Shown here piece by piece: positions 6,954-37,144 of a stretch of DNA of 54,408 nt. The notes beneath the pieces are model-generated. The model did not search any database. It saw only the letters and a list, made by a program, of their open reading frames with translations, and was not told the DNA's origin. This DNA is from Candidatus Doudnabacteria bacterium (lineage in GTDB: Bacteria > Patescibacteriota > Doudnabacteria > UBA920 > O2-02-FULL-48-8). Where the stretch lies: contig JAHFJG010000008.1 in the NCBI GenBank assembly GCA_023246005.1, forward strand, positions 1 through 54,408, written 5' to 3'. The number at the start of each line of letters is the position of its first letter. Position 1 is the stretch's first letter. The translations under genes and the position numbers were made by a program.

Positions 6954-8564
6954 ATGAATGAACGAAAAAATTCTAAATCCAGTTTGGTGTGGGGGTTAAT
7001 TAAATCCAACTGGGCGCTGCTTGTAATTTTAGCCCTCGCGCTTTTTTTTCGGTTCTGGCAAATCAATCATCTGCCGGGCGGATTGTTTCCGGATGAAGCG
7101 GCCAACGGACTGGATGTCAATTCGATTTTTCGTGGCCATATCCAGCCTTTTTTTGAGCGCGGCAATGGCCGGGAAGCCCTGTTTTTCTATTTTGAAGCGT
7201 TATCAGTTTTATTTTTTGGACGCGGTGTTTGGCAATTCCACATTGTTTCGGCTGCTTTTGGTTTTGCGTCAGTGGTTGCAATATACTTTTTGGCCAAACG
7301 GATGTTCGGCAAGCGAACTGCCTTGTTGGCCTCGTTCTTCCTGGCTGTCTCAAGTTACGCTGTCACAGTCACCAGAACGGCTTTTCGGGCCACCACCGTG
7401 CCGCTGATTTCAACCTTGACGATTTTCTTTTTAGTTAAATTTTTTCAGGCCAAGGATACCAAATCCAAATATTGGTCAGCAGCGTTAGCAGGATTATTCT
7501 TTGGTTTAGGTTTTTATACTTACACTTCCTTCCGCATGATGCTGCCATTAGTAGTCGGATTTTTGTTTTTGTTATTTTTAGGATTCCGAAACCAATGGAA
7601 AGAACTGTTCCGGCAGTATTCTAAATATAAGTTAGTTTTTGCCGCCGCATTTTTAATCACAATTTCCTGGATTACAATTTATTTCATCCATCACCCAAAG
7701 AGTTTTGTCGGCCGCGCTGGTCAAATTTCTGTTTTTAGCAAGGATTTGAATCATGGCGATTTGATCGGTACTGTAGTTGATGTTTTCAAAAAAACTATTT
7801 TGAGCTTTTTTACGCAAGGTGATCTTAATTGGCGCCAGAATGTTTCTGGTTTTCCCTTCCTTTCCCCATTCATCAGCGTGTTTTTTGCCCTAGCCCTGAT
7901 TACGTTTACGATTGGAATATTTCGCCTCCTCAAGCAAATTTGGCAACAAAACATTGAAGAAAAAACTTTTTATCAAGCCTTGGTTGGCTGCTGGTTTTGG
8001 TTTATGCTGGTGCCGGAAATCACAACGGCCGAAGGAATTCCCCATGGCTTACGGCTGACTGGCGTGATTGCTCCTATGTTTATTCTGACAGCCTGGGGAG
8101 TTAATTGGCTTTGGGAAAAAATGCCGCATCATCCGCATATTAAATTCGAAAAATTGCTTTTCGCCACAATATTTTTCTCTGCCATAGTTGTTTATAATTT
8201 CGCACTTTACTTTGGCGTGGCTGCCTCCTCGGCTGAAAATTATTACGCATTTCGATCGGACCTGACTGATGTCAGTAATTACTTAAATCAGCGAAATTTG
8301 AAAGATCGGACTTATCTTTCGCTTGATAAATTTTCTGTTCAAACAACTGAGTACCTGACCACTGATACTAACCAGCCGTATATCTTGGTAGATCCTGCGC
8401 ACACTTATGAAGTTAAACTTAAAAAAACCGATCAGGTGATATTTACTGAAAGCACGCTATTTGATCGTGAAAAATTTCTGCAATACCATCCAACAGCAAA
8501 GCTTGTCCGCGTAGACCGCAATCAATTCGGACAAATTATTATGTTAGTTTACGAGCAGCCGTGA
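6954..8564 (+). CDS. Glycosyltransferase family 39 / ArnT-PMT-like membrane protein
   Basis: The start was chosen at ATG 6954. The first loop carries DE (GGLFPDEAANGLD), followed by about 12 TM helices and a soluble C-terminal domain. Confidence 0.8.
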   Translation: MNERKNSKSSLVWGLIKSNWALLVILALALFFRFWQINHLPGGLFPDEAANGLDVNSIFRGHIQPFFERGNGREALFFYFEALSVLFFGRGVWQFHIVSAAFGFASVVAIYFLAKRMFGKRTALLASFFLAVSSYAVTVTRTAFRATTVPLISTLTIFFLVKFFQAKDTKSKYWSAALAGLFFGLGFYTYTSFRMMLPLVVGFLFLLFLGFRNQWKELFRQYSKYKLVFAAAFLITISWITIYFIHHPKSFVGRAGQISVFSKDLNHGDLIGTVVDVFKKTILSFFTQGDLNWRQNVSGFPFLSPFISVFFALALITFTIGIFRLLKQIWQQNIEEKTFYQALVGCWFWFMLVPEITTAEGIPHGLRLTGVIAPMFILTAWGVNWLWEKMPHHPHIKFEKLLFATIFFSAIVVYNFALYFGVAASSAENYYAFRSDLTDVSNYLNQRNLKDRTYLSLDKFSVQTTEYLTTDTNQPYILVDPAHTYEVKLKKTDQVIFTESTLFDREKFLQYHPTAKLVRVDRNQFGQIIMLVYEQP

Positions 8565-22654: not shown

Positions 22655-23119
22655 ATGGCAAAGGTATCTGTCAAACGGTACGTTGAGCAGGTCCGTGACG
22701 GAAGCGAGTACAAAGGTTACCTGAAAATCGCCGAGACCACATTGGACTATGAGCTGAGGTTCGACATCCCGATTGACAAGCTGGATGATTCTGAACTCTT
22801 AGATGGAGTTCATGAAATTCGCCGGGTCTTCCAGCTGACTGTGAAGCGAAACGGAAAGAGGATTGAACTCACCGATGAAGAATATGGCTTCTTCTTCCGG
22901 TTGCTCGTTTTGTTCGCAGTCGAGTTCTACAACAATCCGCGAACTCGTGAAAACAACCAAGGCCTTCTGGGAATGACCTTGCGTGGCAAGGGAGAGATAT
23001 CAGCTTTCGGAGTTTCCTCTTCGATCGGGATTACGAGCAGCAACTCGTATGACATCCCGTCTGGACTGTGTGAGACCTTGAACGCGCCGAAGTTTGGGTG
23101 CGCAATCAACGGCACCTGA
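22655..23119 (+). CDS. Orphan protein B (154 aa), G+C-enriched
   Basis: An AGGAGG SD (22639-22644) lies 10 nt before ATG 22655. The ORF track starts it at GTG 22631. No family was recognised. Confidence 0.5.
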   Translation: MAKVSVKRYVEQVRDGSEYKGYLKIAETTLDYELRFDIPIDKLDDSELLDGVHEIRRVFQLTVKRNGKRIELTDEEYGFFFRLLVLFAVEFYNNPRTRENNQGLLGMTLRGKGEISAFGVSSSIGITSSNSYDIPSGLCETLNAPKFGCAINGT

Positions 23120-23130
23120 ACAATCATGCT

Positions 23131-23214
23131 GGGGACGAAGGTCATCTTGACTTCGTCCCCTCCCCACCATCCCCAAACCCCGACACTACGATCGGGGGTA
23201 AGAGGGATTTTTTT
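23131..23214 (+). terminator. Compound GC-rich terminator of cassette B
   Basis: A 10-bp hairpin GGGGACGAAG/CTTCGTCCCC (23131-23160) is followed by CCCCGA/TCGGGG and a T7 run (23208-23214). Confidence 0.55.
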
Positions 23215-23251
23215 ATTGCCCAAATCTACCCAGGCGAATGCCGAGGTGGGT

Positions 23252-32721: not shown

Positions 32722-33455
32722 GTGTTTATCATCAAATTAGTTAGCAATAATTTTGAATTCACATTCTGATCCAGATATCGTCGGGACAAAGCGACTTGGC
32801 TGATTTTTTGAGCCAAATTTTTCGAAGCGCTGATATGCAGTTCAGTTTGCAGAATTTTGAGCCAAAGATCTAAAATATTTTTTATTTCTGAAGTTTCCAA
32901 ATCGGCAATATCATAAGCGGCAATTAATTTATCAGCCAGTTGTGCTTGAGTAAAAATTTTATAAAACTCCGCCGCTCTGCTAGATTCTTCAGTGACTTCT
33001 TCCGGCCTTTCCAAAACACCAAAAGTTATTTTTTGCGCACGAGACAAAATTGTTTTTGGCAGACGCTGAGCATTGCTTGTAATCAAAATAATATATGTGT
33101 AGTTCTTTGGCTCTTCCAGCGATTTGAGCAAAGCATTGGCTGCTTCGGTAGTCATCTCATCAGCGTGATTAATCACCGCGACTTTATATTTGGCTGAATA
33201 AGGCTTAAGAGCAAGTTTATAGATCAAATCGCGAATCTGCTCAATCTTAATGCCCTCGTTGCTATTGATTTCCAAAAGATCAGGATGGAAATCCTTGTCT
33301 GACCCAATTAACTCATGCGCCAATTTCATGGCAATGGTTTTCTTGCCAATACCTTCAGGCCCGGCAAAAATAAAAGCATGCGCCAGCTTGCCACGCTCAA
33401 GGCCGTTTTCCAAAAATTCTAATTGTTTCTTATGCCCCAAAATACCTTCAAACAT
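32718..33455 (-). CDS. holB: DNA polymerase III delta' subunit
   Basis: It has an AAA+ clamp-loader fold with the motifs HAFIFAGPEGIGKKT and SRAQ. Confidence 0.85.
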   Translation of the reverse strand: MFEGILGHKKQLEFLENGLERGKLAHAFIFAGPEGIGKKTIAMKLAHELIGSDKDFHPDLLEINSNEGIKIEQIRDLIYKLALKPYSAKYKVAVINHADEMTTEAANALLKSLEEPKNYTYIILITSNAQRLPKTILSRAQKITFGVLERPEEVTEESSRAAEFYKIFTQAQLADKLIAAYDIADLETSEIKNILDLWLKILQTELHISASKNLAQKISQVALSRRYLDQNVNSKLLLTNLMINT

Positions 33456-33461
33456 GGCTGA

Positions 33462-33490
33462 ATTATAACAGTTTGGCCTAGTATTGACAA
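33462..33490 (-). promoter_or_regulatory. holB promoter (predicts a leaderless mRNA)
   Basis: TTGTCA (33490-33485) is followed by a 17-nt spacer and TATAAT (33467-33462). The ATG lies 6 nt downstream. Confidence 0.55.
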
Positions 33491-33512
33491 AAGCCTACAA
33501 ATTATGTATATT
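33484..33512 (+). promoter_or_regulatory. Promoter of the D-E orphan operon
   Basis: TTGACA (33484-33489) is followed by a 17-nt spacer and TATATT (33507-33512). Its -35 overlaps the holB -35 by 5 bp. Confidence 0.6.
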
Positions 33513-33550
33513 TTTATGTTGCACATTCCGTGCATGAAGGAGGAATATGC

Positions 33551-34039
33551 TTGAAGGGCATGATCGTTTACTCATTCGCTTGGCGAAAAAAAGGACACAG
33601 TCCTTGCAATATTCGCTTAGCAGAAGGAGCTAAGCGAATCATCGAAGCCCAGGACGAACCAGTTTTGGTTTTCGCCCAGCGCACTACAGCGCTGGTTCTC
33701 AAAGAGCTTAGCGTGGAATGTCAGATCGTACCGAAGCGGTCAAGTTACGAAGGATCCGAAGTGCTCACTCGGCAGCCCGCAGAGGTATTTAAGGAAAACG
33801 GAATCACTGAAGTCATTCCCGTGGCTCAGCCGTTTCTGCAACTGACGAAGTGCATTCAACTGGTTCACAAGGAAGGTTTTCGGACTCCGTCGTTTTTCAA
33901 ACTCGTGTCCCTGATCGGTTGGATCGGATTTGATCGAGAATCAGTTCAACCTTGGACGCGAGGTCTGTTCCGGCTGGTGTTCTACACTGCCAGACAGATT
34001 CTGTTCAGCTACAAGCCACCGCCAGAACTTTCAGAATAA
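33551..34039 (+). CDS. Orphan protein D (~160 aa), G+C-enriched
   Basis: An AAGGAGG SD (33537-43) lies 7 nt before TTG 33551. Alternative starts are GTG 33530 and ATG 33560. Codon usage is foreign (CTG, CGG, CCG). Any DUF218/YdcF-like resemblance is only weak. Confidence 0.5.
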   Translation: MKGMIVYSFAWRKKGHSPCNIRLAEGAKRIIEAQDEPVLVFAQRTTALVLKELSVECQIVPKRSSYEGSEVLTRQPAEVFKENGITEVIPVAQPFLQLTKCIQLVHKEGFRTPSFFKLVSLIGWIGFDRESVQPWTRGLFRLVFYTARQILFSYKPPPELSE

Positions 34040-34180
34040 CCTCCACTCCGTTAGCAAAACGGGAAATGAGTAATTTGCTTTAGAGAATCTATTTCTTCTC
34101 AAACTCTCGAATGAATCGCTCAGGACTCGCGGCATGTCGCTGCGGTCCCCCGTCTGCGGACGGAGAGGGAGGGTAGGCCG

Positions 34181-34540
34181 ATGTCGAACCCGAACCTGGT
34201 GGCCCCGGAGCTCGAGACCCTGGCGCGCGACCTTTCGCAGTCGTCTTCCGTTGAGGTGTTCTACCTCGACGACCAAGGCGCACCGCAGAAGGCCGCGTAC
34301 TACTCCCAATCATTGGGGGACGCCGTCCGTATCGAGATGAAACCACACCTCGTGGTAACTCGTCAGATACAGGACGACTCCGACCCCGAGAGCTGGAGTA
34401 CCGAAGATGTTTCCATCCCACTCGAAAGAGTGCTGATGGCCAACATCTCGGTGAGCGATGAATGGGCTCCCTCCGGGGAGATCCAGTCATCGCAGTGGGT
34501 CAACGGCCCCCACGGCAAACTCCTGCGGCTCGTGCCGTAG
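34181..34540 (+). CDS. Orphan protein E (119 aa), strongly G+C-rich
   Basis: A GGGAGGG SD lies 7 nt before the ATG. G+C is 219/360, and 94/120 codons end in G/C by hand count, which is coding-type periodicity. No family was recognised. Confidence 0.65.
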   Translation: MSNPNLVAPELETLARDLSQSSSVEVFYLDDQGAPQKAAYYSQSLGDAVRIEMKPHLVVTRQIQDDSDPESWSTEDVSIPLERVLMANISVSDEWAPSGEIQSSQWVNGPHGKLLRLVP

Positions 34541-34576
34541 GAGTTCAGGGGACCCGCGGCAATCATGCAAAGTGCT

Positions 34577-34621
34577 GATGGGACATTCTCCCATCCCCGG
34601 CAACAGCTTGTCTGTTGCCGG
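34577..34621 (+). other. Two GC-rich hairpins in the 3' UTR of gene E
   Basis: The hairpins are GATGGGA/TCCCATC (34577-34595) and CCGGCAACAG/CTGTTGCCGG (34597-34621). They lie directly upstream of the terminator. Confidence 0.5.
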
Positions 34622-34626
34622 GCACG

Positions 34627-34672
34627 CCCCGTACCGTCCGCCTCCGGCGGACTGGTGCGGGGTTTTCTTTTT
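34627..34672 (+). terminator. Intrinsic terminator of the D-E operon
   Basis: The structure is CCCCGTACC-[GTCCGCC/GGCGGAC]-GGTGCGGGG followed by TTTTCTTTTT. It has the same architecture and tail as 29172-29222. Confidence 0.7.
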
Positions 34673-34724
34673 GCCCAAAATTATTACTAACTGATTATTA
34701 GTAATATATTACATATTGTCTATA

Positions 34725-34754
34725 TTTTTGTCCGATCGGTCAGTTTTTTAGACA
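34725..34754. promoter_or_regulatory. Operator unit 3' of regulator paralog 2
   Basis: TTTTTGTCCGATCGGTCA... matches 35246-35275 at 27/30 positions, in direct orientation. It ends 1 nt before the regulator's stop codon. Confidence 0.55.
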
Positions 34755-34755
34755 G

Positions 34756-35229
34756 CTAAAAATTATAGTTTATTTTTCCATCAATAATTGAAACATGTGG
34801 TCGAATATTTAATTCTTTAATTATTTGCTTAATATCATCAGTAACAATAAACGGCGCGATCAGTACGCTCTTTTGTAAGTTAATATAACCGCTTCTTTGC
34901 AAATGCCGACGAAAAATTGTGCGTTGCCTGGATTTTTCTTCAGGAATATCAAAAATTATAATGGTACTCAAGCCATCTTGCCTATTTCTTTTTTGGATTG
35001 GTTTATGTAGTAAGCCCCTGCCTTTTGCTGTTAAAAAATATGCGCTTCGACTTCCTGATTTTTTCTTTAAAATCATACCTCGTTTTTCTAGCCTATTAAG
35101 CGTAGCATAATAGGTTGCTCTTGGAATTGGCCTAAATCGCAATTTACCTGGAGGAGTGGTTATAAAAGTTAACAAGCCGTCCGCGGCCTCATCTATCATT
35201 TGTAGTAAATATTCGGCATAACTATTCAT
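34756..35229 (-). CDS. wHTH + Cas2/VapD-like-fold regulator (PaaX-like), paralog 2
   Basis: It has the motifs YYATLNRLEKRGMILKK...YFLTAKGR and TIIIFDIPE..RRHLQRSGYINLQKSVLIAP..VSIIDG. By eye it is about one-third identical to 29320-29841. Confidence 0.7.
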   Translation of the reverse strand: MNSYAEYLLQMIDEAADGLLTFITTPPGKLRFRPIPRATYYATLNRLEKRGMILKKKSGSRSAYFLTAKGRGLLHKPIQKRNRQDGLSTIIIFDIPEEKSRQRTIFRRHLQRSGYINLQKSVLIAPFIVTDDIKQIIKELNIRPHVSIIDGKINYNF

Positions 35230-35235
35230 ACATTG

Positions 35236-35277
35236 ATTGTATAATTTTTTGTCCGATCGGTCAATATTTTATACATT
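35236..35277. promoter_or_regulatory. Divergent promoters sharing the palindromic operator of paralog 2
   Basis: On the - strand TTGACC (35264-59) is followed by a 17-nt spacer and TACAAT (35241-36), with the ATG 6 nt downstream (leaderless). On the + strand TTGTCC (35249-54) is followed by a 17-nt spacer and TACATT (35272-77). Confidence 0.55.
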
Positions 35278-35308
35278 GTCACAAATCTTAATAGATAAAA
35301 TCGACAAA

Positions 35309-35378
35309 AATCAGTAGGTTCTTTTGGATTGATCCTGCAACACTTTTGCGAGGTTCAACTGAACTTACTGATTTTTTT
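35309..35378. terminator. Bidirectional long-range hairpin (13 bp) flanked by A-run and T-run
   Basis: AATCAGTAGGTTC (35309-21) pairs with GAACTTACTGATT (35361-73), with one G-T pair and a 39-nt loop. AAAAA lies upstream and TTTTTTT downstream. Confidence 0.5.
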
Positions 35379-35391
35379 CGTGCGAATTAGG

Positions 35392-35532
35392 CCCAGTATA
35401 TCAACTTCGATAATGGTCTGTCTGCTTTTGCGATCTAGTAAAATTAAACTCTCAATTTTACGTCGATGAACGATCTAGCTTTGATCGGTCCAACCATTTG
35501 AACGCAAAAGCGATCGAAGTTGTATTACTGGG
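35392..35532. repeat. Palindromic ~145-nt intergenic element, copy 2
   Basis: The arms are CCCAGTATATCAACTTCGAT (35392-411) and ATCGAAGTTGTATTACTGGG (35513-32). Inner pairs are AATGGT/ACCATT and GCTTTTGCG/CGCAAAAGC in the same crossed order as copy 1. Confidence 0.6.
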
Positions 35533-35664
35533 TGGGCTTAACCATAATCAGCTTAGATTATCAAAATTTGAGCGTCAAAATAATTTATTATTTATCAAAA
35601 ATATAGCTTTTTTCATAGCGCTGTGTAGAACCTGTGAGCAAACCGTGAGTAAGCAGTGGAGTGG

Positions 35665-35697
35665 ATCCCCGCTTTCGCGGGGATGGTTTTTATTTTT
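35665..35697 (+). terminator. Intrinsic terminator, + strand
   Basis: ATCCCCGC-TTTC-GCGGGGAT is followed by GGTTTTTATTTTT. There is no U-run on the opposite strand. Confidence 0.65.
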
Positions 35698-35725
35698 AAA
35701 ATGCTCAAAAATAAAAAACCAACTT

Positions 35726-35960
35726 AAAAACCACCTTACGGTGATTTTTAATTGAACCGGTGTGCTGCCAAACCCGCTAACTTCGCTCTTACGAACTCCA
35801 CTAGCCTGGGAATTGGTCCAAGAGGTTGCCCTTACTTGTTCTACACCCAAGTCGTTTCTTACTTAAGCGTACCAATTCGGATTCAACAGTGCCTGATCCT
35901 CGAACAGCCTTTTTAGAGCCGTCCTGCCTAATAAAGATTGCTCTTTACCAAGACCATGGT
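35726..35960 (-). ncRNA. Candidate ~235-nt structured RNA of unknown class
   Basis: A consensus promoter lies upstream and a GNRA-capped hairpin plus U5 lies at the 3' end. Several hairpins can be drawn by hand, including UAAAGA-GCAA-UCUUUA and a 38-nt CCC..GCUA..UUCG/CGAA..UAGC..GGG stem. The only ORF runs through two terminators. Confidence 0.55.
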
Positions 35961-35966
35961 GAAAGC

Positions 35967-35995
35967 ATTATAGAAACGACAAAAATATCGGTCAA
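35967..35995 (-). promoter_or_regulatory. Promoter of the candidate structured RNA
   Basis: TTGACC (35995-90) is followed by a 17-nt spacer and TATAAT (35972-67). The -35 is embedded in ATCGGTCAA, which is an operator half-site. Confidence 0.65.
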
Positions 35996-35996
35996 G

Positions 35997-36025
35997 GAAA
36001 AATAAAAACCTATGCAAATCATAGG
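35997..36025 (-). terminator. Intrinsic terminator downstream of the second mreB
   Basis: On the minus strand CCUAUG-AUUUG-CAUAGG is followed by UUUUUAUUUUUU. Confidence 0.6.
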
Positions 36026-36038
36026 ATTTAAAGATTTT

Positions 36039-36090
36039 TTATCCAAATTGTGCATAAACTGTGCGTAAACTTTGGATAATTTGTGCAGAA
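36039..36090. promoter_or_regulatory. Cluster of five DnaA-box-like 9-mers
   Basis: TTATCCAAA (36039-47) and its inverse TTTGGATAA (36071-79) have one mismatch each to TTATCCACA. The + strand also reads TGTGCATAA, TGTGCGTAA and TGTGCAGAA, the reverse complements of TTATGCACA, TTACGCACA and TTCTGCACA. Confidence 0.3.
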
Positions 36091-36136
36091 AAAACCGCAT
36101 TAATTGCAAATGTCAACCTAGCAGGCGAAGTCTGGC

Positions 36137-37144
36137 CTATTTACTAGCCAAAATGCTCTTTTTGTAACTATCCAAATTATCCAAAGCCACGCCAGTGCCT
36201 TTCACAACGCACAAAATCGCGTCTTCAGCCACATAAGCTGGCACCCCGGTTGATTGGCCAATTAGTTTATCCAAATTTTTCAGCAAAGCAGTGCCGCCGG
36301 TCAGAACCATACCCTTGTCTATAATGTCTGCTGCCAATTCAGGCGGGGTTTCCTGCAGGACAGAACGAATGGCTTTGATTATTTCTCTAAGTTCTTCTTG
36401 AATGGCTTCCACGACTTCGTTTGTGGAAATTGTCACAGTCTTGGGCAAACCTTGCAGCATATCGCGCCCACGGATTTCCATGGTCAGTTCTTTTTCCACT
36501 GGCATGGCCGAGCCAATTCTGATTTTAATTTCTTCAGCCGTTCTGTCCCCCACTGCCAAACCGTATTTTTTTTTGATAAAATCCGCAATCGCCTGGTCCA
36601 TTTTATTACCCGCTACCCGCACAGAGGTTTGAGTGACAATACCGCCAAGGGACAGAATCGCCACATCAGTCGTCCCGCCGCCCATATCTATAACCATATT
36701 GCCAGAGGCTGCAGAAATATCAATGCCAGCGCCAATAGCCGCGGCCACTGTTTCCTTAATTACAAAAGCCGCTTTTGCCCCTGCGGCTTGAGCCGCGTCA
36801 ATCACGGCCCGGCGTTCCGTGGAGGTAATGCCTCCTGGAACTGAAATCATGACTTCTGGGCGAAAAAATCTGACATTGCCAACGGTCTTGTTTATAAAAT
36901 AACGAAGCATAGCTTCGGTTATGCGATAATCAGCAATCACACCATCCTTCATTGGTCGATGCGCTACAATCGTATCAGGAGTCCGCCCCAGCATTTCTTT
37001 GGCTTCCGCTCCCACAGCCAAAATTCGATTATCAATAATCGAAATCGCAACCACGGTTGGCTCGTTGATGACTATGCCTTTTTTCGGCACATAAACTAAG
37101 GTGTTGGCTGTGCCTAAATCAATCCCAATCTTTTTTAAAAACAT
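36137..37144 (-). CDS. MreB-like actin homolog (second paralog)
   Basis: The start was chosen at ATG 37144 (MFLKKIGIDLGTANTLVY). It has the motif DMGGGTTDVAIL. It lies downstream of murA-murB. Confidence 0.88.
   Translation of the reverse strand: MFLKKIGIDLGTANTLVYVPKKGIVINEPTVVAISIIDNRILAVGAEAKEMLGRTPDTIVAHRPMKDGVIADYRITEAMLRYFINKTVGNVRFFRPEVMISVPGGITSTERRAVIDAAQAAGAKAAFVIKETVAAAIGAGIDISAASGNMVIDMGGGTTDVAILSLGGIVTQTSVRVAGNKMDQAIADFIKKKYGLAVGDRTAEEIKIRIGSAMPVEKELTMEIRGRDMLQGLPKTVTISTNEVVEAIQEELREIIKAIRSVLQETPPELAADIIDKGMVLTGGTALLKNLDKLIGQSTGVPAYVAEDAILCVVKGTGVALDNLDSYKKSILASK

Follow-up and report, generated by a model that had tools for sequence, protein, structure and literature searches.

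A conserved RNA fold predicted across an entire protein-coding gene, behind an exchangeable open reading frame in Patescibacteria-type genomes

Why should an AT-rich genome carry a sharply bounded island of GC-rich coding DNA? The question is raised by a 54,408-nucleotide (nt) stretch of Candidatus Doudnabacteria DNA (contig JAHFJG010000008.1; hereafter the window), in which two adjacent genes, D and E, lie between positions 33484 and 34672. The mean GC content of the window is 41.6% and that of the flanking genes 34-47%, with an abrupt step at both ends of the island. Gene D has 49.8% GC (0.57/0.40/0.52 at the first, second and third codon positions, GC1/2/3), and gene E has 60.8% (0.63/0.41/0.78; GC3 78.3%). 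A preliminary description took the pair for a foreign operon from a high-GC donor, and E for a protein gene and not a structured RNA. Our analysis leads to a different reading, to which we assign a probability of about 0.6: 33484-34672 would be one chromosomal unit of Patescibacteria type, in which a promoter is followed by a slot for exchangeable open reading frames (ORFs) and then by a constant part, consisting of a structured leader, E and a structured 3′ untranslated region (UTR), whose fold gates the translation of E.

By its pattern of substitution, E is a protein-coding gene under purifying selection. An indexed search returned four relatives with 50-84% identity, and a hidden Markov model (HMM) of the family gave 11 matches among 1.84 billion cluster representatives, two of them unrelated repeat proteins; about nine credible representatives of 115-124 amino acids (aa) remain in that collection. 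With metagenome scans and genomic context look-ups added to the searches, the E loci total 12 (related loci are cited below by L numbers). Between close pairs the ratio of nonsynonymous to synonymous substitution rates (dN/dS) is 0.21-0.26, and differences fall on the three codon positions as 14:10:31. All length differences are multiples of three, with codon-sized indels across the 12 loci. A GGAGG-N6-8-ATG arrangement of Shine-Dalgarno (SD) site and start codon is kept in 10 of 10 loci checked, and the motifs RPHLVV, IPLExV and WV.GP.G.L.R are retained down to 27-32% identity. The products are acidic (isoelectric point (pI) 4.3-4.7) and soluble, with a grand average of hydropathy (GRAVY) of -0.39 for the E of the window. 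The preliminary description had called E a genuine protein gene from its GC3 periodicity, and this view is sustained: homologs exist and the coding signature holds among them.

The family is rare and resembles nothing that could be named. No E homolog was found outside a handful of Patescibacteria-type contigs in 5.8 billion clusters and 1.84 billion representatives, and none in the genome_contigs and viral_contigs collections. An AlphaFold2 (AF2) model, with a predicted local distance difference test score (pLDDT) of 78 and a predicted template modelling score (pTM) of 0.70, consists of an N-terminal helix followed by eight β-strands. Foldseek returned nothing significant for it in the PDB (best E-value 8e-3, template modelling (TM) score 0.28-0.33) or in the viral library BFVD, and there was no significant fold match to a PNPOx-like split β-barrel. 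Neither E nor D matches Pfam, NCBIfam, PHROG, PADLOC or a PDB sequence profile, which bears out the earlier remark that neither product carries a nameable motif. Literature searches found no description of gene E or its RNA.

Meanwhile, the nucleotides of the E coding sequence (CDS) appear also to form a conserved and unusually stable RNA fold that extends over leader and CDS as far as the terminator. The 641 nt of leader, CDS and 3′ UTR (34040-34680) have a minimum free energy (MFE) of -321.5 kcal/mol, compared with -240.7 ± 5.8 kcal/mol for dinucleotide shuffles (z = -14). No other 500-nt stretch of the window is as structured as the E region, whose excess stability is -0.13 to -0.14 kcal/mol/nt against a background of -0.013 ± 0.023 kcal/mol/nt. 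Synonymous-codon permutations alter neither protein nor codon usage nor GC, and for 12 of 12 E genes none of them folds as stably as the native CDS (z from -2.9 to -8.1; -7.4 in the window, where the permutations average about -129 kcal/mol). Ten ordinary control genes give z values of +1.8 to -2.6. Because GC is held fixed, GC content alone cannot explain the fold.

The fold is supported by covariation across the family. RNAalifold places 98 consensus pairs on seven E CDSs, and 91.4% of the alignment cells concerned are paired, compared with 85.0 ± 0.7% after column shuffling (0 of 500 shuffles) and 36-42% with slid partners; doubly changed pairs number 22, against 12.5 ± 2.1 in shuffles. In a codon alignment of 12 genes that is protein-guided and not fitted to the structure, 78.3% are paired compared with 68.8 ± 0.9%, with 40 doubly changed pairs compared with 23.4 ± 3.0 (0 of 300). 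All homologs keep the longest hairpin (about 34325-34375), which has the PHLV codons at its centre; in L014, L015 and L016 it is re-formed although the nucleotides, and even the amino acids encoded, differ. Helix positions are retained at 27-32% protein identity. Thirteen of the 98 pairs are mostly G.U, which indicates a sense-strand RNA. The synonymous divergence (dS) of E is 0.5-0.7 at 50% amino-acid identity. Searches of Rfam gave no matches at gathering thresholds over the whole window and nothing relevant in E-value mode for 33400-36150 and L013, where matches at E-value ≤10 were at chance level in the window region and absent in L013. Thus, the statement that E is not a structured RNA does not stand against the z score of -14, the permutation results in 12 of 12 genes and the family-wide covariation.

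The 141 nt between D and E had been described as a spacer with no terminator. The length is correct and a terminator scan found none on the plus strand in 34040-34180, but the segment appears to be a conserved structured leader rather than a spacer. It is conserved in L001-L004 and L011-L013, starting about 10 nt 5′ of a hairpin CCGUY...RACGG that is followed by GAAAAUGAGU. A predicted long-range helix pairs 34040-34063 (CCUCC.CUCCGU..ACGGG) with 34149-34172 and takes in the SD of E, with two further helices inside it. This SD-burying helix is obtained from the RNAalifold consensus and from the single-sequence MFE structure (z = -3.2). Among the leaders, 93.2% of cells are paired compared with 89.3 ± 1.0% in shuffles (0 of 500), and nine pairs are doubly changed compared with 4.5 ± 1.5 (1 of 500). 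The anti-SD varies in step with the SD region, as in the pairs ACCUCCU/AGGAGGU (L004), CUUCCUGU/ACAGGAGG (L002) and AUCUCUAGUCC/GGACUGGAGGU (L003). In the window, the D stop codon TAA directly abuts the CCUCC anti-SD block.

Leaders of 140-260 nt precede E in all loci having upstream sequence. In the distant loci L014, L015, L016 and L020 a consensus promoter lies directly before a leader of 215-260 nt, and when the leaders of L014-L016 are folded, the SD is again predicted to pair with an upstream CCUC/CCUU. A DNA pattern of the leader core had only two matches in genome_contigs, both by chance in Granulosicoccus coding sequence. By these comparisons the leader fits the cis-regulatory type, as a conserved 5′ structure that always stands before the E family and has the SD in its closing helix. 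The conserved motif GAAAAUGAGU (34066-34083) contains an AUG at 34066 that opens a short ORF, five codons here and 2-63 in relatives, of which neither length nor sequence is conserved; in L011 it stops just 5′ of the SD of E, and it could be a leader-peptide element.

The constant part is preceded by a shared front. In L013, L011, L004 and L002 the -35 element of the D-E promoter is invariant and the -10 element reads TACAAT, TATAAT or TATAGT. The 5′ UTR hairpin GTTGCACATTCCGTGCA is common to relatives regardless of the ORF downstream and forms the left margin of a variable slot, which begins directly after the shared promoter, hairpin and SD; the right margin is the CUCC block of the E leader. 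Five unrelated ORF families fill the slot in six loci: D in the window, a 103-aa ORF in L004, a 122-aa ORF in L002, a 202-aa cold-shock-domain fusion in L003, a 108-aa ORF in L013 and L012 that is homologous to the C-terminal half of this fusion, and Ppnp (PF06865) in L011. L011 and L013, with nearly identical E proteins, have different slot ORFs. A comparison of the region upstream of holB, proposed earlier, thus finds promoter, hairpin and SD shared and the following ORF different.

As in integron cassettes and replacement hot spots, unrelated promoterless ORFs are swapped behind a fixed promoter. Unlike in integrons, however, no integrase and no attC-like site were found, the sequence after the slot is the E leader, the margins are an SD and that leader, and the neighbours are holB, BNR, PaaX/Cas2-like and mreB genes; an integron cassette array was therefore rejected. 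No second copies of the slot-flanking motifs occur in the window. It is simpler to suppose that the ORFs are exchanged by homologous recombination through the conserved sequences on either side.

The occupant of the slot in the window, gene D, evidently belongs to a family of its own lineage. Its start is TTG 33551, 7 nt after the SD, since the N terminus MKGMIVYSF matches that of homologs. About 45 full-length homologs share 57-73% identity, and the named ones come from metagenome-assembled genomes of Patescibacteria, Parcubacteria and Paceibacterota; in other genomes these homologs stand alone in unrelated contexts, each with its own terminator, and E never follows them. The AF2 model is a confident α/β Rossmann-like structure (pLDDT 92.5). 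Foldseek gave only weak matches in the PDB, to MGS-like, CPS and GART domains (best E-value 0.012; query-normalised TM-score up to about 0.44, target-normalised 0.51 to methylglyoxal synthase 6f2c_B). By this model, D is a member of a Patescibacteria-wide Rossmann-like family and, by its homologs, apparently a native gene of the lineage and not a foreign one. The suggested Rossmann-like character is thus borne out, but membership in DUF218 is not: no significant profile or fold match to DUF218/YdcF or any other named Rossmann family was found.

Further observations concern D itself. An ATG at 33547, 3 nt after the SD and out of frame with D, opens a 28-codon ORF (33547-33633) that overlaps the start of D and may compete for initiating ribosomes. 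The 5′ coding region of D is strongly folded (33500-33750), with 150-nt windows reaching z = -6.8. It contains a perfect 11-bp hairpin (33611-33639) that is not conserved among D homologs and was set aside as a functional element on that account. Two of three D homologs elsewhere are more stable than their synonymous permutations (z = -4.1 and -3.5; regions 4001-4492 of L005 and 875-1375 of L008), and D-family genes are always richer in GC than their genomes.

The features of the unit and its surroundings are listed in Table 1. The earlier placement of the promoter, both SDs, the ORF ends, the 141-nt gap and the GC values is correct throughout, and the promoter-to-terminator layout, as predicted, bears out two real protein genes in one unit. 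The D-E and holB promoters overlap at their -35 elements, so that competition for RNA polymerase between both units is possible. Of the 3′ UTR hairpins, the first (GAUGGGA-CAUUC-UCCCAUC) is also present in L002, and the second is CCCGGCAACAG-CUUGU-CUGUUGCCGGG (34596-34622). The U-tract TTTTCTTTTT ends the unit in the terminator, which a simple scanner overlooked because its hairpin is bulged. Its tail GGGTTTTTCTTTTTGC is kept in relatives, and its loop region holds another CCUCC.

Table 1. Predicted features of the D-E unit and its surroundings, in window coordinates
Feature	Position	Strand	Remarks
holB promoter, TTGTCA-17-TATAAT, extended TG	33490->33462	-	divergent; 11/12 consensus match
Sigma-70-type D-E promoter, TTGACA-17-TATATT	33484-33512	+	11/12 consensus match
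5′ UTR hairpin	33518-33534	+	conserved in relatives; single copy in window
Gene D SD, AAGGAGG	33537-33543	+	conserved in L013, L004, L002
Gene D	33551-34039	+	TTG start; 162 aa; pI 9.4
E leader (earlier "spacer")	34040-34180	+	141 nt
Gene E SD, GGGAGGG	34167-34173	+	7 nt 5′ of ATG 34181; predicted sequestered in closing helix
Gene E	34181-34540	+	119 aa; pI 4.4
3′ UTR, two hairpins	34541-34626	+	
Intrinsic terminator	34627-34672	+	17-bp GC-rich bulged hairpin, then UUUUCUUUUU
PaaX-like regulator gene	34756-35229	-	157 aa; convergent with E
Conserved hairpin element	35304-35390		16-bp stem AAAAATCAGTAGGTTC...GAACTTACTGATTTTT
Candidate non-coding RNA	35724-35995	-	about 230 nt
Its promoter, TTGACC-17-TATAAT	35995->35967	-	
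Its terminator	35751->35724	-	

According to the reading proposed here, the strong conserved promoter and the 5′ UTR with its hairpin and SD would drive whichever ORF fills the slot, and the constant part would follow, from the 141-nt structured leader through E and the structured 3′ UTR to the terminator. The leader would hold the SD of E in the long-range helix, whose opposite strand (CCUCC...) begins right after the D stop; locked in this helix, the SD would leave E translationally silent by default. Two routes may open it. The first is translational coupling, by a ribosome that finishes translating the upstream ORF, and may operate in the window, L004 and L011. As the anti-SD begins at the base after the TAA of D, a terminating ribosome should melt the helix and couple E to D, and the distances from stop to anti-SD (0 nt in the window, 5 nt in L004, 13 nt in L011) suit such coupling. 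The second, for leaders directly behind their own promoter, may be temperature, a helicase or cold-shock-domain protein, or a ligand. The dense folding would probably also prolong the life of the mRNA, and the CDS-wide fold is plausibly RNase-resistant.

Several known systems share parts of this arrangement. In the single-stranded RNA phage MS2, the coat-replicase 'Min Jou' pairing closes the downstream ribosome site by means of a distant upstream segment. Ribosomes that pass along the upstream cistron, or end translation on it, open the site, and the coding RNA of the phage is densely folded. The SD of E is likewise predicted to be closed by a distant upstream segment in densely structured coding RNA. 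However, E is a chromosomal gene of bacterial DNA, its coupling is suggested only by the stop codon abutting the anti-SD, and MS2-type coupling cannot apply where the E leader follows its own promoter. In RNA thermometers and structured leaders such as those of the rpoH and cspA mRNAs, structure at the SD and partly in the CDS gates translation, though in the initiation region only. The structure of E similarly takes in SD and CDS but extends over the whole CDS, with no sequence or Rfam relation to either. Taken together, the E mRNA appears to be a structured, SD-sequestering mRNA that is unusual in having its fold superimposed on the entire CDS of a novel family. To our knowledge, cellular protein genes whose whole CDS is a conserved, co-varying fold are rare outside RNA viruses and type I toxins.

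Certain points weigh against this reading. Coupling does not fit L003, L002 and L013, where 28-60 nt separate stop and anti-SD. A rough control on 10 other genes predicted pairing for many of their SDs as well (mean pairing probability 0.61); because control SDs are so often paired too, only the conserved, co-varying partner is counted as evidence for sequestration, and pairing probability by itself was rejected. The number of related sequences in the alignments is only 6-12, and the consensus structures come from these sequences themselves. All of the claims on co-transcription, on the translation of E and on the RNA fold are computational. Unpaired third positions are still 67% G/C, so the fold does not account for the whole GC excess, and the fold of the E protein matches nothing significantly in the PDB or BFVD.

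The extent of the folding also invites another explanation, the chief rival, which we consider unlikely though not far-fetched, namely that the transcript is a dual-function RNA whose fold has its own task, as a scaffold or sponge for protein, a regulatory RNA or a ribonucleoprotein with the E product. The helices span the whole CDS and 3′ UTR, far more than hiding an SD needs, their positions persist at 27-32% protein identity, and synonymous divergence is abnormally low for the protein identity. On the other hand, no target, partner or conserved single-stranded seed was identified, Rfam gave no match, and a role in stability or in gating translation fits the same data. SgrS/SgrT, RNAIII/hld and SR1/SR1P combine a structured RNA with a peptide of less than 50 aa, with ORF and regulatory part largely separate. 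The E transcript would similarly be both structured RNA and small-protein template, but with the structure superimposed on a 119-codon ORF. It is a doubtful proposition that this transcript founds a new class of bifunctional RNA in Patescibacteria, a compact fold of about 500-640 nt with its own function that keeps its architecture down to 27% protein identity and also encodes a novel-fold protein. If true, the RNA might form a particle with its acidic product, or be a nuclease-proof or regulatory RNA, and the constant module would lie behind a promoter-proximal slot in which close strains exchange unrelated genes.

It is improbable that E is a GC-rich structured non-coding RNA (ncRNA) in which an open frame arose by chance, despite the extreme structure signals, the many overlapping ORFs on both strands and the lack of a known domain or fold. 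Similar to GC-rich ncRNA genes in AT-rich genomes, a class that came to light in screens of GC-rich intergenic regions, E is a sharp GC island with promoter, terminator, extreme z scores and covariation. Unlike them, it specifies a conserved protein on which purifying selection acts, and it has no Rfam match: dN/dS is low, third-position changes dominate, indels are codon-sized in 12 loci, SD and ATG are conserved, GC differs among codon positions, and a protein HMM reaches members of 27-32% identity with conserved motifs. The eight ORFs of 40 aa or longer that overlap E, counted over both strands, are artefacts of high GC, as previously supposed, because the antisense ORF across E is interrupted in L003; that ORF was rejected as a genuine gene for the same reason.

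That a high-GC donor recently supplied D and E, which then came under a host promoter, is very improbable. Their atypical composition (GC3 of E 78%, against the window mean of 41.6% GC) and the true variability of the D position among relatives had favoured it. Yet the D family is native to Patescibacteria, and E has no homologs beyond Patescibacteria-type contigs and none was found in a high-GC lineage; the taxonomic distribution thus identifies no donor. L013, a contig of 31.7 kb, has the gene order of the window (BNR, holB, slot ORF, leader and E, PaaX/Cas2-like, mreB). The E proteins of both are 60% identical, in step with holB (62%) and BNR (68%), which argues for vertical inheritance of E; MreB is 93% and the PaaX-like protein 34% identical. 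E also adjoins holB in L004 and L011 (holB-slot-E) and lies toward mreB in L001 (E...mreB), L013 having both neighbours. There is no tRNA or tmRNA gene in the window and no integrase, transposase or other mobility gene among the neighbours, and flanking direct repeats were not noticed in a repeat search that covered inverted repeats only. We conclude that the D-E pair is evidently not foreign DNA. The mosaic origin proposed for it stands insofar as D and E have different histories, with swaps in the slot, and falls with regard to foreign origin.

The composition of E tells the same story across the family. Its GC lies 15-22 points above the rest of the contig in 12 of 12 loci, and its GC3 is 0.66-0.88 except in L014 (0.49). 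As these loci are diverged, a high GC is a maintained property and not that of an un-ameliorated import. GC3 is 78% at paired and 67% at unpaired third positions (p = 4e-5); because the latter is still above the genome average, RNA structure explains only part of the excess. GC-biased gene conversion at a recombination hot spot is not favoured as the cause, since the GC of the adjacent holB is as low as 38.8% and E is rich in GC even at loci that have no slot. The high GC and GC3 of E therefore appear to be kept across vertically diverging lineages, serving the fold at least partly.

We give little credence to a type I toxin-antitoxin-like system, in which the mRNA of a toxic E would be locked and controlled by an antisense RNA or by processing. 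The hok mRNA has a fold-back structure, and like hok and aapA/IsoA, the E mRNA has a long leader, a compact stable fold and a hidden SD. In type I toxin mRNAs, the SD is hidden by upstream and ORF-embedded anti-SD sequences and the primary transcript is translationally inert (PMC6733600); the SD-sequestering long-range fold, long leader and stable mRNA of E resemble them. However, type I toxins are small hydrophobic membrane peptides of less than 60 aa, whereas the E protein, of 119 aa, is soluble and acidic (pI 4.4, GRAVY -0.39), and the RNA fold covers the entire 360-nt CDS and co-varies family-wide. No antisense antitoxin, processing signal or PADLOC match was found. There is no minus-strand promoter-like site between 33490 and 34694, and the nearest (34722->34694) is a weak 10/12 match in AT-rich DNA, which is prone to chance matches. 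An assembly chimera or contamination, with the GC-rich piece alien to the genome, is next to negligible despite the abrupt GC step at both ends, as E lies within low-GC Patescibacteria-type flanks in nine or more independent assemblies of different samples, including holB-slot-E in L004, L011 and L013 and E...mreB in L001 and L013.

The neighbourhood holds further features. The PaaX-like regulator has a winged-helix and a Cas2-like domain (PaaX_M, PF20803); its surroundings showed neither a CRISPR array nor any other cas gene. It is present in the window and in L013 and missing between E and mreB in L001, L004 and L011. The conserved hairpin element, which may be a bidirectional terminator, stands directly after the E terminator in L001 and L004, since these loci lack the PaaX-like gene. 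A candidate ncRNA with its own promoter and terminator is located in the window between the PaaX-like gene and mreB. Its core is near-invariant in L013, L001 and L011, RNAalifold gives it 65 pairs, eight with compensatory changes, and it has no Rfam match. Across the whole ORF-free gap at 35363-36085, relatives share 72-81% identity with the window, in which 35101-35600 ranks second in structure among 500-nt stretches. In L013, a segment of about 145 nt, homologous to 35392-35533 of the window, is repeated in inverted orientation (7188-7330 and 7887-8030) and flanks the conserved non-coding region. Elsewhere in the window, 23026-23250 is another GC-rich spot (0.55-0.57; folding z about -4), located between the end of a 162-aa plus-strand ORF and a PBP2-like gene.

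If this reading is correct, the locus would add three new objects: a rare family of acidic proteins with no recognisable fold, an SD-sequestering leader of 140-260 nt that is absent from Rfam, and a slot for swapped ORFs whose margins are defined to the nucleotide. For annotation pipelines, it suggests that "coding" and "structured RNA" are not mutually exclusive. A sharp high-GC3 island in an AT-rich genome need not signal horizontal transfer. In E, which was inherited vertically, such an anomaly appears to have persisted for long, and selection for RNA structure would account for at least part of this persistence. The family may offer a tractable case of a CDS-wide fold within the poorly understood candidate phyla radiation.

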